From a virus (taxonomy: Duplodnaviria > Heunggongvirae > Uroviricota > Caudoviricetes): 9,382 bases of DNA. Made by a program: the position numbers and the translations under genes. The notes under the pieces are model-generated. The model had not been told where the DNA came from. It ran no database searches and saw only the letters and a list, made by a program, of their open reading frames with translations. This document shows, piece by piece, positions 2,125-9,257 of this stretch (the stretch's first letter is position 1; every line of letters starts with the position of its first letter). The DNA lies in the IMG/VR virus record IMGVR_UViG_2740892235_000008, one strand, 5' to 3'.

Positions 2125-2612
2125 TAAGCCCCCACGTAATTCCCTGACAGATACCACTCTTCACCCGATACAGCGCGCTTGCTGCTTTTCCGTAAACACC
2201 GCTCACGACGCGCAAGAAAATTGTTTCGCTCTTGCTGGGAGTGGCTTTCACGGAATGCCGCCATCCACACCGTTGCAGCACGACGGTATAAGCCCCTGGA
2301 CTCCAGTTCTTCCGCCTGGCGGGTCAGGCACAAAATCACCCGGGGATCGTTAGTGCCGACATAGAAATTGCGCACAGGTCTGGATTCACGAACTGGTTGC
2401 GGTTCCGGCTCCTGCGGTATCTCAGTCAGCCGCGGGAAATGTCTGCGTGTATCCCCTTCACAACGGTGAGCCACACGCCCACTCTGACGTAACTTGCTTG
2501 CTGACTGCAGAACGCGCTGTCGTGAGTAACCTGCAAAAGCATCCGCAATGTCTCCGGAAGTACACCCCGGATGGGCTTCAATGAATTTCTGAACGTCATT
2601 CAAAAGACTCAT
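2124..2612 (-). CDS. PerC/ANR-family-like regulator with an additional N-terminal domain, about 162 aa
   Basis: ATG 2610-2612 preceded by AGGGGG with about 5 nt spacing (GTG at 2616-2618 is the alternative). C-terminal LESRGLYRRAATVWMAAF...RRERCL matches the remembered PerC/Pch signature (GLWRRAA..W...RR..CL). Stop overlaps the next ATG. Confidence 0.5.
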   Translation of the reverse strand: MSLLNDVQKFIEAHPGCTSGDIADAFAGYSRQRVLQSASKLRQSGRVAHRCEGDTRRHFPRLTEIPQEPEPQPVRESRPVRNFYVGTNDPRVILCLTRQAEELESRGLYRRAATVWMAAFRESHSQQERNNFLARRERCLRKSSKRAVSGEEWYLSGNYVGA

Positions 2613-2614
2613 GA

Positions 2615-3794
2615 TCACCCCCTGAATCCTGCCGGGATCTGGCTGTAGTCCACATTGTCGTAACTGGCTTTGAAGTACGGGTCTTCGCGTTTTTCTGTGT
2701 ACGTGCTGACGGACGGCGATAAGCGCAGGGAAAGCTCATCCCATTTTTCCCGCAGCTTCGACGGGCTGAGCACGTTNNNNNNNNNNATTTGAAGTACGGG
2801 TCTTCGCGTTTTTCGGTGTACGTGCTGACGGACGGCGATAAGCGCAGGGAAAGCTCATCCCATTTTTCCCGCAGCTTCGACGGGCTGAGCACGTTACGGC
2901 ACCAGAACGGATCGCGGCTGACGCGGCTGTACATCTCGCAGATTTGTTTATGAGTACGACCATCCTGCACACACATCAGGCGAATTTCGTTTGCCCAGGC
3001 TGTCCAGTTCGGTTCTTTGGGACGAACCACCTCGCCGTCACATTCGGCAGCCTGCTCGTACAGGGCGATGATTTTTTTCCAGAACCACTGTGCGCAGGTC
3101 AAATCATCCTGCGTCCCCCACTGGCGTTTTTTAGGGCTGAATACAACCGCATCAGGATGGCGAGTTAAAAAATCCTGTTCAGCCGTCTGCGTGTCCGGTT
3201 GCGAAGAGTCCGGACGAGAAGGTTTTTTATCTGACGGATCATGTTTTGATTTTACTGACGGATCCCCGCCAGATTCTGACGGGTGAAAACCCGCTTTTTT
3301 GCCAGATTTCGACGCATCAAATTTTGACGGGTCAGATTTTGATGCGTCAGATTTTGACGGGTCAGAATCTGACAGTTGAGAAAATGCCGCTGCCTGAAGC
3401 TTCGCAACGTTAAGCTGATAAACATTCGACGCATTGCGGTTACCCTGGCGACGCGCCTTACGCGTTAACCAGCCTTCTGCTTCCAGCCGTGCGATAGCCG
3501 TTCTGACGGTACTCATCCCCGCGCCAATCTGGCGTGCAATGGTTTCAATCGATGGCCAGCACACACCTTCGTCATTACTGAAATCAGCCAGGCGGGCCAT
3601 AATTGCCACGCTGGATAATTTCATGCCTGANNNNNNNNNNAGCCAATCTGACGGGCAATGGTTTCAATTGATGGCCAGCACACACCTTCGTCATTACTGA
3701 AATCAGCCAGGCGGGCCATAATTGCCACGCTGGATAATTTCATGCCTGACGCTGCGCAACCATCCCATACATAGCCGGTTAATTTAGTGCTCAT
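2615..3794 (-). CDS. phage replication initiator, O-like (N-terminal wHTH, Ser/Asp/Lys-rich repeat linker, C-terminal domain); spans two scaffold joins with duplicated flanks
   Basis: ATG 3792-3794 with GAGG Shine-Dalgarno 7 nt upstream; translation MSTKLTGYVWDGCAASGMKLSSVAIMARLADFSNDEGVCWPSIETIARQIG... In-frame through segment 2787-3630. True stop TGA at 2615-2617 found by hand translation (…DPYFKASYDNVDYSQIPAGFRG). The ORF-track frame after the 2777-2786 gap is an artefact. Real gene length is shorter than the coordinate span because 2672-2776 / 2789-2896 and 3520-3630 / 3641-3751 are duplicated overlaps. Confidence 0.6.
2777..2786. other. assembly gap (10 N)
   Basis: Run of n characters; about 105 bp either side are near-identical direct repeats. 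Confidence 0.95.
3224..3377. repeat. iteron-like tandem array (15-bp period; consensus CAGATTTTGACGNGT; 5 contiguous copies at 3303-3377 plus degenerate copies at 3224-3284); candidate replication origin inside the initiator gene
   Basis: Direct reading: cagatttcgacgcat / caaattttgacgggt / cagattttgatgcgt / cagattttgacgggt / cagaatctgacagtt, plus cagattctgacgggt at 3270-3284 and two CTGACGGATC-containing units at 3224-3265. They encode the SDxSK pentapeptide repeats of the linker. Lambda ori iterons lie inside O in the same way (established knowledge). Confidence 0.5.
3631..3640. other. assembly gap (10 N)
   Basis: Run of n characters; 3520-3630 and 3641-3751 are near-identical with 3 SNPs. 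Confidence 0.95.
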
Positions 3795-3803
3795 GACCGA
3801 CCT

Positions 3804-4142
3804 CTATTTCCCTGAATTTACGACGAAACTGTTCGAGCGGGCTGAAGCACTCATGCTCATAGCCTTCGCGGAGGTAGATAACACGTTGTGTTTCCGGCTC
3901 CCAACGAATGACTCTGACGGGCACTCCGTAGTGATCTTTGAACCAGCGGTTAACTTGTCGCAAAGGACTGTCTCCTTCTGCCGGTTGAAATCACCCACAG
4001 CCCACTCTGCAAAGCTGTGGGTTACAATTTCCCTGTCACCTGGTACATTTACTGCATAGCAATACTCCACCTTCGCTTTTCCACCCGGTACAGGAAGCGC
4101 AATCAGTTGCGAGCGACGGTAGTGTGTTGTTAAACTGTTCAT
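3804..4142 (-). CDS. hypothetical protein (112 aa) between cII-like and replication genes
   Basis: ORF-track ORF; ATG 4140-4142 overlaps the upstream stop as ATGA; stop is 9 nt before the replication gene ATG. Same strand as the whole operon. No recognisable family. Confidence 0.4.
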
Positions 4143-4690
4143 GCGTTAGTTTCTCCACAGTCACGACACGCCACGGCGCCCGGAGCTGCACACTCGCGGG
4201 CGTCACTACTTTCTGAAACGCAAAAGATTTTGTAGACCAGTGCTGCATGCTCCTGCAGCTTCGAAATTGAGAGGTACAGCTCATCGTTAATTGCTGTCTT
4301 CTCATGCGGTTCCACTACACCGTCTTCAATTGCTGAACGAATCTGTTTTGAATAACTGCCGATCTGTTCAATGACCTCCAGCAGGCGTTGGTTGATATCG
4401 GCGTTGTCCACATCCTCGACATCAGGAAGAGACACAAAGACGCCATTTGCAGACTGCGCCACAGCGTCAGCAATGAAGTGAGTTCCACCAGCACGTTGCA
4501 AAATCATTGCCCATCCCAGCGGGAAAATCTGATCGCCATCGGCACGAAGGCGGTTAAATAATGCGTTCTCTGTTACATCCAGCCAGTCAGCAGCTTCAGC
4601 GTACCCCCCCGGCAACGCTGCGATAGTTTTTCTGACAGCTTTCACGTACCACTCAGGCTGTTTTTCTACTTTCCAGTGATGCTTACCCAC
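4139..4690 (-). CDS. cII-like early regulator (HTH-containing, 183 aa)
   Basis: GTG start 4688-4690 preceded by a perfect AGGAGG with 6 nt spacing. Sits immediately downstream of the cro-like gene. Remote cII-like HTH pattern in …[19 protein letters not shown]. Function inferred from position and weak pattern. Confidence 0.55.
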
Positions 4691-4943
4691 GGTTCACCTC
4701 CTGTTCCTGTGGTTTAAACCCATTCTGGTTTTGGCTAGATTGAAAACGTGCCGGATAAAGAATCTGCATTTCGCTGACTTCACCCTTAAAAAAATTGGCT
4801 AAACGTTCTGCAAGCTCGATAGATGGAATCTGCTCCAGCCTCTCAATACGACTCAACGTCGCTGGATTGACTTGAACACCCGCAGCAACATGCTGCAAAG
4901 TGAAACCATGCGCCTTACGCACATTTCGTAATGGTGATTGCAT
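4683..4943 (-). CDS. cro: Cro-like XRE-family HTH repressor (86 aa), immunity module 1
   Basis: ATG 4941-4943 with GGAGGG Shine-Dalgarno; translation MQSPLRNVRKAHGFTLQHVAAGVQVNPATLSRIERLEQIPSIELAERLANFF is a typical HTH_3 fold. Divergent from the cI-like gene across a 97-bp operator region. Confidence 0.7.
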   Translation of the reverse strand: MQSPLRNVRKAHGFTLQHVAAGVQVNPATLSRIERLEQIPSIELAERLANFFKGEVSEMQILYPARFQSSQNQNGFKPQEQEVNRG

Positions 4944-5040
4944 ATGCCCTCCAAATATTGCGCGTTATGCATGTTATTTCACGCAATTATTTTGCGCAAG
5001 TTGATTTGCTTATCACGCAATAAAGAAATGTAATAAACGC
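4944..5040. promoter_or_regulatory. divergent promoter/operator region (OR/PR/PRM-like) of immunity module 1
   Basis: Between divergent cro-like and cI-like starts. Contains dyad TTGCTTATCACGCAA (5006-5020), a weaker TTGCGCGTTATGCAT (4958-4972) and the palindrome CGCAATTATTTTGCG (4982-4996). Possible PR toward cro: -35 TTGCGC, -10 TAACAT read on the minus strand. Confidence 0.55.
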
Positions 5041-5733
5041 ATGAACATAGGAAACCGAGTCAGACAACTTCGCCAAGCGAAGAACATGAAAATCGCCGAT
5101 CTCGCTGAAGCGATAGGAGTAGATGCGGCGAACATCTCGCGCTTAGAAACGGGTAAGCAAAAACAATTTACCGAACAAACACTGAGTAATATTGCCAGGA
5201 GCTTAGGTGTTGATATTGCTGATCTCTTTACCTCTGCCCACAAAAGTAATACTGTATATAAAAACAGTAATAATGAGGATGTTGCGCAGGTGAAGGATGT
5301 GTTCCGTATTGAAATGCTGGATATCAGTGCCAGTGCGGGAAATGGCCTTATCCAGGGCGGTGATGTCATTGATGTGATTCATGCCATCGAATACAGAACT
5401 GATAATGCTGTATCAATGTTCGGCGGACGACCAGCCAATCACATCAAAGTTATCAACGTTCGTGGGGACAGTATGTGTCCAACCATTGAGCCCGGAGATC
5501 TCATCTTCGTTGATGTCAGCATCAATCAGTTTGATGGTGATGGTATATATGTCTTTGGTTTTGATGACAAAATATACGTTAAAAGACTTCAAATGATTCC
5601 TGACAAACTGCTGGTGATTTCTGATAACCAGATTTACCGTGAATGGGGAATTACTAGCGAAAACGAACACCGATTCATGGTCTTTGGAAAGGTCTTAATC
5701 AGTCAGTCGCAAACCCTTAAGAGACATAATTAA
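5041..5733 (+). CDS. cI: CI-like phage repressor (N-terminal XRE HTH, C-terminal S24/LexA-type autopeptidase), 230 aa
   Basis: Translation has HTH (VRQLRQAKNMKIADLAEAIGVDAANISRLETGK), a candidate Ala-Gly cleavage site (ASAGNG) and the S24 catalytic motifs GDSM … KRL. Stop TAA 5731-5733. Confidence 0.9.
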   Translation: MNIGNRVRQLRQAKNMKIADLAEAIGVDAANISRLETGKQKQFTEQTLSNIARSLGVDIADLFTSAHKSNTVYKNSNNEDVAQVKDVFRIEMLDISASAGNGLIQGGDVIDVIHAIEYRTDNAVSMFGGRPANHIKVINVRGDSMCPTIEPGDLIFVDVSINQFDGDGIYVFGFDDKIYVKRLQMIPDKLLVISDNQIYREWGITSENEHRFMVFGKVLISQSQTLKRHN

Positions 5734-5985: not shown

Positions 5986-6009
5986 AATACTATGTGTAAG
6001 AGAGCGCAA

Positions 6010-6213
6010 ATGAACCGTTATTTCACATGCTCGTTTTGTGGCGCAAACGAGCTGCAGGCAAAAAAAATCATCGCCAAAGGCGGAAAAGATGAAGTTGCTA
6101 TCTGCTCTGAGTGCGTAGTCTTGTGTGTCGGGGCATTAATCAATAGCAGCACAACTATTCGGTTCACACCAAATGAGAATGCGCCTTTAGATGCGCGGAA
6201 ATCTGGAGGTTAA
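6010..6213 (+). CDS. small ClpX-type C4 zinc-finger (ClpX N-terminal ZBD-like) protein, about 67 aa
   Basis: Translation MNRYFTCSFCGANELQAKKIIAKGGKDEVAICSECVVLC… matches the remembered ClpX N-terminal zinc-binding signature ([33 protein letters not shown]). Purine-rich AAGAGAG 5 nt before ATG 6010; the ORF-track ATG at 5992 has no Shine-Dalgarno. Confidence 0.55.
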   Translation: MNRYFTCSFCGANELQAKKIIAKGGKDEVAICSECVVLCVGALINSSTTIRFTPNENAPLDARKSGG

Positions 6214-6689: not shown

Positions 6690-6803
6690 AAAGGATACCA
6701 CCGAGCCTGAAGTGGTGAAAAGACAGGCACATAACAGCTAAGTATTTTCAACCAGAGAGAATCCTTAGCGTTGTGGTGAATGCGGCTCAGCGCACGCGGG
6801 TTA
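6690..6803. repeat. conserved right-flank element, copy A (6725-6803 identical to 8930-9008; 6690-6724 similar with SNPs to 8896-8929)
   Basis: Direct comparison of the two stretches; copy A is truncated by the gap at 6804. Confidence 0.6.
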
Positions 6804-6813
6804 NNNNNNNNNN
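6804..6813. other. assembly gap (10 N)
   Basis: Run of n characters. Confidence 0.95.
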
Positions 6814-7128
6814 TTCCAGCAGGCGTTGGTTGATATCGGCGTTGTCCACATCCTCGACGTCAGGAAGAGACACAAAGACGCCATTTGCAGACTGCGCCAC
6901 TGCGTCAGCAATGAAGTGAGTTCCACCAGCACGTTGCAAAATCATTGCCCATCCCAGCGGGAAAATCTGATCGCCATCGGCACGAAGGCGGTTAAATAAT
7001 GCGTTCTCTGTTACATCCAGCCAGTCAGCTGCTTCAGCGTAACCACCCGGCAACTTTGCGATAGTTTTTCTGACAGCTTTCACGTACCACTCAGGCTGTT
7101 TTTCTACTTTCCAGTGATGCTTACCCAC
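6814..7128 (-). CDS. cII-like regulator, second copy, N-terminal part (3' end cut by gap)
   Basis: GTG 7126-7128 with GAGG Shine-Dalgarno 6 nt upstream; translation nearly identical to 4139-4690 (one A to K change seen). 6814-7128 repeats 4376-4690. Confidence 0.55.
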
Positions 7129-7165
7129 GGTTAGCCTCATCGTTCTGTGGTTTCTGTTAATCGAT

Positions 7166-7366
7166 TTATCCATTAGATTTTTCATAAAGCTCAGGTTTAA
7201 ATGGCAACCGTCCGCAAGTTCTATATGCAGCTTCTGCTGCACGTCCTTTTGGAATTAACTGGCCCGGACGGTTTCGCCACTGATAAACGGCTTCAGTTGT
7301 TATGCCGAAAAAAGCAGCAACTTTCTCAATACTGCCGAAGTAGCTTTCGATATCGTCAGTTGTCAT
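7166..7366 (-). CDS. cro: Cro-like small HTH protein (66 aa), immunity module 2
   Basis: ATG 7364-7366 preceded by TTTGGAGGGCGT, the same leader as cro-1. Translation …SIEKVAAFFGITTEAVYQWRNRPGQLIPKGRAAEAAY is a Cro/YdaS-type HTH pattern. Divergent from cI-2. Confidence 0.65.
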   Translation of the reverse strand: MTTDDIESYFGSIEKVAAFFGITTEAVYQWRNRPGQLIPKGRAAEAAYRTCGRLPFKPELYEKSNG

Positions 7367-7463
7367 ACGCCCTCCAAACTAAGTTTTGTTAGATGCTAAT
7401 TACAAATCTATCTTTGGTCAATAAAAACTAAGATTACTTAGCAATTAAAGAAATGGTGCTCCT
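7367..7463. promoter_or_regulatory. divergent promoter/operator region of immunity module 2
   Basis: Contains 14-bp dyads CTAAGTTTTGTTAG (7379-7392) and CTAAGATTACTTAG (7428-7441); consensus CTAAG-N4-sTTAG, unrelated to the module 1 operator motif. Confidence 0.5.
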
Positions 7464-8090
7464 ATGGAAACGGTTGGTCAGCGTATAAAAGCTCTGAGAA
7501 GAGTTACCAGAACGTCCCAGAAAGAATTGGGTAAATTTTGTGGAGTAAGCGACGTTGCTGTGGGGTACTGGGAGAAAGACATCAATACCCCTGGCGGGGA
7601 GGCACTTTCGAAATTAGCGAAGTTCTTCAATACGTCAATAGATTACATTCTTTATGGTGCTGAGTTTGAAGGCAAACTCGTCACAAACATGCGCAGAGTT
7701 CCTGTAATATCGTGGGTTCAGGCTGGGCAGTTTACTGAGTGCAGGGCAGCAGAAGTGTTTAGTGAAGTGGACAAGTGGGTAGATACATCATTAAAGGTTG
7801 GTGATAACTCATTTGCATTAGAGGTTAAAGGTGACTCCATGACTAACCCTAATGGCCTCCCAACAATACCAGAAGGCGCAACAGTGATTGTAGATCCAGA
7901 TGCAGAACCTCGTCATGGAAAAATAGTCATCGCTCGACTTGATGGAACAAACGAAGCTACAGTAAAAAAATTAGTCATCGATGGCCCTCAAAAGTTTTTA
8001 GTGCCATTAAATCCTCGGTATCCCAACATCCCTATCAATGGTAATTGCCTTATCATTGGTGTAGTCAAAGGAGTTCAATACGAACTCTAA
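7464..8090 (+). CDS. cI: CI-like phage repressor 2 (HTH plus S24 autopeptidase), 208 aa
   Basis: Translation has HTH (IKALRRVTRTSQKELGKFCGVSDVAVGYWEKD) and the S24 motifs GDSM … KKL. Sequence is unrelated to cI-1 apart from fold-level motifs. Confidence 0.9.
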   Translation: METVGQRIKALRRVTRTSQKELGKFCGVSDVAVGYWEKDINTPGGEALSKLAKFFNTSIDYILYGAEFEGKLVTNMRRVPVISWVQAGQFTECRAAEVFSEVDKWVDTSLKVGDNSFALEVKGDSMTNPNGLPTIPEGATVIVDPDAEPRHGKIVIARLDGTNEATVKKLVIDGPQKFLVPLNPRYPNIPINGNCLIIGVVKGVQYEL

Positions 8091-9247: not shown

Positions 9248-9257
9248 NNNNNNNNNN
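9248..9257. other. assembly gap (10 N)
   Basis: Run of n characters; 9119-9247 and 9258-9382 are near-identical. Confidence 0.95.

Follow-up and report, generated by a model that had tools for sequence, protein, structure and literature searches.

An e14-like prophage ymfM gene with an embedded out-of-frame DUF4222 gene and a putative ribosome-relay tail

In the Rz/Rz1 pair of phage lambda, a small spanin gene is embedded out-of-frame in a larger one, and both genes encode conserved functional proteins. Coupling by termination and reinitiation is likewise known, both from the ATGA junctions of phage operons and from the out-of-frame lysis gene of the RNA phage MS2. We know of no described case of an open frame being conserved without its peptide. 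Here, these systems are compared with an open reading frame (ORF) of 112 codons on the minus strand (3804-4142) of a 9,382-nucleotide (nt) stretch of viral DNA (Caudoviricetes; IMG/VR record IMGVR_UViG_2740892235_000008), which as a whole is referred to as the window. Altogether, the locus is best explained as a ymfM gene with an embedded out-of-frame DUF4222 gene, in which the second half of ymfM (the tail) would act as a ribosome relay and the inhibitor of cell division would most likely be the N-terminal domain (N-domain). We regard this explanation as probable.

The resemblance to Rz/Rz1 lies in a small gene with its own start that sits inside a larger lambdoid ORF in another frame, with both apparently expressed. 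The two cases differ in that the ymfM overlap displays avoidance of stops and a constant end point but no conservation of the peptide, and in that DUF4222 extends 20 nt beyond the ymfM stop. With coupled operons the locus shares a chain of ATGA or short-gap junctions, found at ymfL-ymfM, between the short-form N-domain and the next gene, and between the ORF in the +1 frame relative to DUF4222 (the ymfM frame) and the replication gene, whereas here ~55 codons without a conserved peptide cross another gene in a different frame.

As a gene, ymfM is known from Escherichia coli K-12, where expression of its ORF from pBAD24 caused strong filamentation, and Z rings were lost (Ansari et al., bioRxiv 10.1101/2020.11.19.390815). 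This filamentation required none of SulA, SlmA and MinC, and the SOS-associated SfiC phenotype was explained by ymfM (bioRxiv 10.1101/2020.11.19.390815). The same region had been recovered in earlier shotgun screens (PMC3614548, PMC6206680). YmfM is comparable to Kil of lambda, KilR of Rac and DicB of Qin with respect to its small size (~57 amino acids, aa, for the N-domain), its position in a prophage early operon and the loss of Z rings on overexpression, while its independence of MinC distinguishes it from DicB. No sequence or fold similarity of YmfM to Kil, KilR or DicB was found in Pfam, PHROG and Foldseek PDB searches.

ymfM and the embedded DUF4222 gene

The minus-strand ORF of 112 codons was confirmed both in the ORF list and in the sequence. 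The initial annotation had left it unassigned and without a recognizable family, and neither statement could be upheld. The translation showed 97% full-length identity to K-12 YmfM (b1148, 'cell division inhibitor YmfM'), with 109 of 112 residues identical in a gap-free alignment, and it matched phrog_1170 over positions 1-112 of 112 (E=4.6e-70). Because of the full-length match to K-12 YmfM, the ORF is no longer unassigned. The counterpart in K-12 MG1655, part of the cryptic prophage e14, has the same position and length. It is flanked by ymfL and by ymfN/oweE, a remnant of the replication gene, and comprises the same ATGA overlap and the same 9-nt gap as the window. Sequence and synteny in the rightward early operon both identify the ORF as an orthologue of ymfM carried by an e14-like lambdoid prophage of E. 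coli. The three residues in which the window copy differs all lie in the tail, and otherwise nothing material separates the two copies. The immunity genes are different, with ymfK/ymfT in e14 and instead an XRE-type repressor (5041-5733), matching strain RM10466, in the window. While the division block is established for the K-12 allele only, it would be expected of the window's 97%-identical copy as well. DNA of the locus is present in 2701 of 5426 complete E. coli genomes.

For the 112-aa ORF, no match was obtained in Pfam (DUF4222 included) or in NCBIfam, which contains no model for either the ymfM or the DUF4222 product, and a Foldseek search of the PDB with the YmfM model returned nothing significant (best E=1.5). 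The match to Pfam DUF4222 (PF13973), a family of small enterobacterial prophage proteins, belongs to a second ORF embedded in the first and not to the 112-aa ORF. The arrangement is as follows:

3804-4142, minus strand: ymfM ORF, 112 codons plus TAG
3972-4142, minus strand: coding part of the ymfM N-domain, codons 1-57, the only part judged to be under protein-level selection in the ymfM frame
3807-3971, minus strand: ymfM tail, codons 58-112, in the +1 frame relative to DUF4222, stop-free, peptide not conserved
3784-3963, minus strand: DUF4222 gene, 59 aa, TTG start and TAA stop, in the -1 frame relative to ymfM, stop 8 nt inside the replication gene
3972-3977, minus strand: putative Shine-Dalgarno sequence (SD) AAGGAG, 8 nt upstream of the DUF4222 TTG

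This embedded ORF matched PF13973 with E=8.6e-19 and 67.3 bits against a cut-off of 27, covering model positions 3-52 of 53, and it also matched phrog_1343. Its product is 98% identical to a protein annotated by the Prokaryotic Genome Annotation Pipeline (PGAP) in other E. coli (WP_001250269.1, TTG start). The initial annotation had overlooked both the DUF4222 ORF and the fact that the 112-aa translation does not look like a protein in its second half.

Which frame is under selection was judged by codon-position counts within the population, in place of the ratio of nonsynonymous to synonymous substitutions (dN/dS) between lineages. Among 61 unique e14-type sequences, the variable sites in the first 59 codons of the ymfM frame numbered 2, 6 and 15 at codon positions 1, 2 and 3, respectively. 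The corresponding numbers for the overlap, counted in the DUF4222 frame, were 6, 3 and 23. The amino acids of DUF4222 are conserved across genera, while the overlying tail in the ymfM frame is scrambled. In other lineages DUF4222 has its own ATG, GTG or TTG start, mostly ATG, after a purine-rich SD-like sequence, and it occurs also where the N-domain gene is not adjacent (lineage L174) or where no N-domain ORF reads into it. Its AlphaFold2 model reached a mean predicted local distance difference test score (pLDDT) of 82.6 with five beta-strands forming a barrel; the predicted barrel is SH3/Tudor-like, with only generic SH3/Tudor/KOW-like resemblance. Comparison of the sequences shows DUF4222, with its own SD and start codon, to be the frame under amino-acid selection in the overlap.

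The view that only ymfM is a gene and the DUF4222 match an accident can refer to the K-12 RefSeq annotation, which has ymfM alone, and to the weak TTG start of the e14-type DUF4222. We consider it hardly credible at all in view of a Pfam score of 67 bits against 27, the 6/3/23 polymorphism, the cross-genus conservation, the ATG starts in most lineages, the confidently predicted barrel and the presence of DUF4222 elsewhere without an overlying N-domain ORF.

Two loci with damaged DUF4222 genes were observed. At ~2680-2860 of L007 (Phytobacter sp. V91), a stop replaces the conserved Trp codon of DUF4222 (MRIVDR*FKDH...), and the ymfM frame across it is still open for 113 codons, which would mean that the embedded gene alone has recently been knocked out. 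In L009 (an Atlantibacter metagenome-assembled genome, 2501-2730), most of DUF4222 is deleted and the ymfM frame is cut to 75 codons, with the N-domain intact.

An exhaustive profile search with ymfM residues 1-57 yielded 102 proteins, many of them stand-alone with 58-64 aa and others with 104-120 aa, which share the motif PQLRC.P..GG...F.Y....G.W...NHSFA.W.VG. The N-domain also matches phrog_20047, and at every locus whose DNA was fetched its gene comes after the CP76 CII-like gene. The AlphaFold2 model of YmfM showed block-mean pLDDT values of 73-88 for residues 11-60, comprising a strand, a hairpin and a helix at 42-64. The first ~57 codons of ymfM encode a small folded domain that is free-standing in many phages. 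The earlier description of the ORF as a single ordinary 112-aa protein is therefore in need of revision: it was right in treating the frame as genuine and, by all appearances, translated, but only ~57 residues form a conserved domain and the remainder overlaps another gene.

These results also bear on the opposite view, expressed by PGAP, that only DUF4222 is a gene and ymfM a legacy annotation of a chance ORF. PGAP calls DUF4222 alone, with no annotation on the first 175 nt, neither Pfam nor NCBIfam has a family for the 112-aa ORF, and the second half of this ORF is off-frame. Against this stand the 2/6/15 distribution in the N-domain and its 102-member family with stand-alone genes in the same syntenic slot, together with the conserved ATGA coupling, the confident fold and the avoidance of stops, so that a chance ORF appears extremely improbable. 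Altogether, the comparative data indicate that both frames are coding, ymfM upstream and DUF4222 in the overlap.

The tail frame and its end points

For residues 65-112 of the tail, pLDDT values were below 50 (AlphaFold2), and the segment is predicted to be unstructured. The tails of homologues are scrambled between lineages. Since the 23 variable third-position sites of DUF4222 are second positions of ymfM, each of them alters the tail peptide. All 11 long-form lineages examined first, from Escherichia, Phytobacter, Atlantibacter, Raoultella, Citrobacter and metagenomic relatives, carry a DUF4222 gene in the -1 frame beneath the tail. Lineages were defined by less than 85% nt identity, and their diversity was obtained from genome contigs, exact-protein look-ups and scans with divergent DUF4222 queries. 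Scans of viral contigs with e14-type N-domain and DUF4222 alignments returned near-identical loci only and served the population census only.

Across DUF4222, the +1 (ymfM) frame was free of stops in 240 instances, representing 89 unique sequences and 19 lineages. Synonymous resampling for 17 lineages, based on pooled local codon usage as the per-locus tables were too small for some loci, gave a probability of an open frame of 0.016-0.105 per lineage (geometric mean 0.053), with 1.7-3.0 stops expected and none seen. As an empirical null, 8.7% of 52-codon windows were open in the flanking long ORFs. The third control lies within DUF4222 itself: V, L and I codons ended in A or G at 0 of 48 sites before a codon starting with A, compared to 23 of 64 before C or T (Fisher p=4e-7). 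Codons at those sites interchange across lineages (GTT/GTC, CTT/CTC, ATC/ATT), and because of this turnover at the avoided sites the stop avoidance appears to be maintained and not merely inherited. Thus, the controls were the flanking genes and the safe-context codons within DUF4222. The +2 frame is useless for this purpose, since the K/E/D/R-rich composition predicts its closure, which was found in 89 of 89 sequences, and L174, intended as a control without overlap, has an ATGA-coupled +1 ORF of its own. In every lineage examined, sequence comparison shows the tail frame to be kept stop-free while its amino-acid sequence drifts freely.

In one alternative, the frame would be open for the sake of its peptide, and the tail would be a functional segment such as a disordered extension that serves division inhibition or stability. 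The strong protection from stops, the common occurrence of long forms of 104-120 aa and the filamentation observed with the full 112-aa ORF are all in line with it. Nevertheless, we find a functional peptide unlikely, since no conservation exists beyond the constraint of DUF4222, with 23 polymorphic second positions within the e14 type. In addition, the tails are scrambled with pLDDT below 50 throughout, many relatives consist of the N-domain only, and an AT-rich group has a separate, hydrophobic +1 peptide of different composition.

The ends of the frame are defined by the junctions with the neighbouring genes:

4139-4690, minus strand: ymfL-like gene for a CII-type regulator, its TGA overlapping the ymfM ATG (ATGA)
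3801-3806, minus strand: stop/SD junction TAGAGG, the ymfM stop fused to the replication-gene SD GAGG, 9 nt before the ATG
3641-3794, minus strand: 5' part of the replication gene (HTH_36-type), protein start MSTKLTGYVWDG

The position of the ORF between a CII-like gene and a replication gene and its coupling on both sides had been described correctly. Upstream, the ATG (4142-4140) shares ATGA with the TGA of a 183-aa gene, and this coupling of ymfM to ymfL is conserved. Downstream, the TAG (3806-3804) is followed by AGG, giving GAGG at 3804-3801, and the next ATG (3794-3792) begins exactly 9 nt past the stop. The upstream gene was identified by Pfam Phage_CP76 (E=1.5e-13), by phrog_101 (CII-like activator) and by the NCBIfam equivalog YmfL (NF041471, 168 bits against a cut-off of 90). 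The replication gene is interrupted by a run of N at 3631-3640 and resumes in the ORF 2596-3624; its orthologue is annotated 'helix-turn-helix domain-containing protein', and related loci carry Pfam HTH_36. To our knowledge, lambda has no gene between cII and O.

The +1-frame stop lies between -11 and +12 nt from the ATG of the next gene in 16 of the 16 lineages with a locatable start. In contrast, the DUF4222 stop spans -83 to +9 relative to that start. The spacing TAGAGG-N6-ATG is found in 9 lineages and, with L177 (TAGGTG and the same 9-nt gap), in 10 lineages in all; in the DUF4222 frame, a rare codon, ATA or GTA, gives rise to the TAG of the ymfM frame. In 5 lineages the +1-frame stop is a TAA that lies 8 nt within the next gene. 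The AT-rich L191 closes the +1 frame with a TGA ending 2 nt past the downstream ATG, L217 of the same group has a TGA that overlaps the downstream ATG as ATGA, and in L174 the stop lies 12 nt upstream of the next gene's start.

The frame is open in all divergent lineages and comprises 112 codons in 61 of 62 unique e14-type sequences. Several evidently spurious overlapping ORFs of at least 100 aa exist in the same window, and the length of the ymfM ORF alone is not significant; it is its conservation, and not its length, that places it beyond chance. An assembly artefact can be dismissed, since the ORF lies in a contiguous block between the N-runs 3631-3640 and 6804-6813.

Absence or frameshift in relatives, with conservation of an opposite-strand ORF instead, had been named as the observation that would speak against the gene. 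The ymfM ORF stays intact in relatives, and the opposite-strand ORF is not a conserved alternative:

3787-4059, plus strand: antisense ORF of 90 codons, judged not to be a gene; no Pfam match, in antisense codon register with DUF4222

Its frame is interrupted in several lineages, the longest antisense open run being only 50-60 codons in L007, L179 and L191. It is open because of its exact codon register with DUF4222, which contains no TTA, CTA or TCA codons. An antisense ORF in this register is a passive by-product, and such cases commonly yield false antisense ORFs.

The lineages can be arranged in five types:

Type I, e14-like: the N-domain ORF continues over DUF4222
Type II, L217 and L193: the N-domain ORF ends at an ATGA that starts a separate +1 ORF of 61-62 codons
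Type III, L191 and L239: the N-domain and DUF4222 share one frame (natural fusion), with a separate +1 ORF
Type IV, L174: an 84-aa gene intervenes, and the +1 ORF begins by ATGA with the stop of the 84-aa gene
Type V, L182-L184: the N-domain alone, without DUF4222, is coupled directly to the next gene

The +1 peptide of type II (MRTQTNLIATIKITEVSLFMLFVM) is unrelated to the e14 tail, being hydrophobic and quite different in composition. What remains constant across all arrangements with DUF4222 is an open, coupled +1 path to the downstream gene, while the peptide varies.

The type III fusions were observed on IMG/VR contigs with a GC content of ~0.40 (~1280-1655), whose sisters L217 and L193 have the N-domain in another frame; the frame relation between the N-domain and DUF4222 flips within one closely related group. 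The 84-aa ORF of L174 (1683-1937; MNPDLFIRQNIERQLSAEGF) lies between the N-domain gene and DUF4222 with an ATGA at both ends and has no Pfam match. At the same locus, the gene caller had called an opposite-strand 96-aa ORF over DUF4222, but not DUF4222.

Natural in-frame fusions (L191, L239 and possibly P0010 and P0048) and the -1 position of DUF4222 relative to ymfM would fit a programmed -1 frameshift that fuses the N-domain to DUF4222 in a ~119-aa product. Such a frameshift is very improbable. The ymfM frame of the 14 type-I lineages contains no X_XXY_YYZ heptamer (0/14), and a stop closes the DUF4222 frame 3-66 nt ahead of the profile match, in L007 and L187 one codon ahead of it. Furthermore, DUF4222 has its own SD and start everywhere, and the zero frame is open for ~55 more codons, which such a mechanism does not need. 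Separately, the database 'fusions' P0001-P0005 were considered as an ancestral protein and rejected; they are near-identical, switch frame at differing places and come from single contigs, which points to indel artefacts.

A candidate ribosome relay

The explanation that we prefer assigns the constraint on the tail to translation itself. From the open frame and its end points we infer that the passage of ribosomes through the tail, and not the tail peptide, would be under selection. According to this reading, ymfL, ymfM and the replication gene would form a chain of translationally coupled ORFs, in which the tail would relay ribosomes across DUF4222 and let them terminate 9 nt before the ATG of the replication gene. 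While passing, the ribosomes would also cover the SD and the TTG of DUF4222 and thereby modulate its initiation, which may fix the proportion of the two products.

The weakest step of the explanation concerns the division block, whose most likely source is the conserved N-domain of YmfM. The published pBAD clone comprises ymfM and DUF4222 minus its last ~6 codons, and the clone D1-8E from 2013 held both ymfM and DUF4222 complete (PMC3614548). Since the published constructs carried nearly the whole of DUF4222, this protein, alone or jointly with the N-domain, is also a candidate inhibitor. The natural in-frame fusions suggest that the N-domain and DUF4222 may act together.

Several points weigh against the preferred explanation. 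The translation of both frames is deduced from comparative sequence only. DUF4222, too, terminates close to the replication-gene start in many lineages, so that coupling could run via DUF4222 and a second relay frame would seem redundant. The chain is not strictly unbroken either, because the +1 ORF of the L191 type has no upstream ORF ending at its ATG. Regarding the sample, 5 of the first 11 long forms were chosen by length, which was later corrected by sampling on divergent DUF4222 proteins alone. Finally, as the lineages share ancestry, multiplied probabilities overstate the significance; the internal-control test and the codon turnover lessen this problem but do not remove it.

Window assembly and annotation of the locus

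The window contains seven runs of ten N (891-900, 1141-1150, 1504-1513, 2777-2786, 3631-3640, 6804-6813 and 9248-9257). The 25-mer preceding each run is repeated in the window, for four runs ~95-120 nt downstream and for three runs several hundred to ~2200 nt away; as an example, 3606-3630 is repeated at 3725-3749. Because the N-runs look like scaffold joins of unmerged overlapping contig ends, genes such as the replication gene, rusA and a LexA-like gene appear partly duplicated. Within these 9.4 kb, two immunity modules are found (4139-5733 and 6787-8090):

Module 1: XRE-type repressor, 5041-5733, plus strand; helix-turn-helix Cro-like gene, 4683-4943, minus strand; ymfL
Module 2: ymfL copy cut by an N-run, 6787-7242, minus strand; YdaS/ymfT-like gene, 7166-7366, minus strand; LexA/S24 ymfK-like repressor, 7464-8090, plus strand

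The two modules match types found in strains RM10466 and Es_ST80, and the scaffold is probably a mixture of two related prophages from one genome. A 73-aa ORF at 5992-6213 (plus strand; MCKRAQMNRYFTCSFCGANELQAKKIIAKGGKDEVAICSECVVLC) shows a CxxC...CxxC pattern and is the counterpart of the 'ClpX C4-type zinc finger protein' annotated beside the RM10466 repressor.

Regarding the databases, the locus is annotated in two mutually exclusive ways. The K-12 RefSeq record lists ymfM and no DUF4222, although the 59-aa frame is intact (L003, NC_000913.3, 5002-5181). In PGAP genomes, DUF4222 is called and 175 nt after ymfL are left empty (L001 and L002, 3163-3337). RefSeq never annotates ymfM and DUF4222 together, and PHROGs holds both as separate families of unknown function. 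In the searchable literature, DUF4222 is mentioned only in unrelated papers, and no ymfM paper mentions the overlap. While the gene itself is already known, the dual coding appears to be undescribed.

This annotation inconsistency touches about half of the complete E. coli genomes. Since the ymfM clone carried almost the whole of DUF4222 with a strong SD, the 40-year-old SfiC phenotype is assignable to the N-domain, the tail or DUF4222. For the family in general, we see an even chance that DUF4222 of enterobacterial lambdoid prophages is systematically dual-coding, with the relay frame either fused to the N-domain ORF or present as a separate, ATGA-coupled ORF, and that SfiC corresponds to the N-domain, the tail or DUF4222. 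Conservation of an open frame without conservation of its peptide is an unusual signature. If the ribosome relay holds true, it would constitute a compact link of the translation of the replication gene to the CII and ymfM cistrons.

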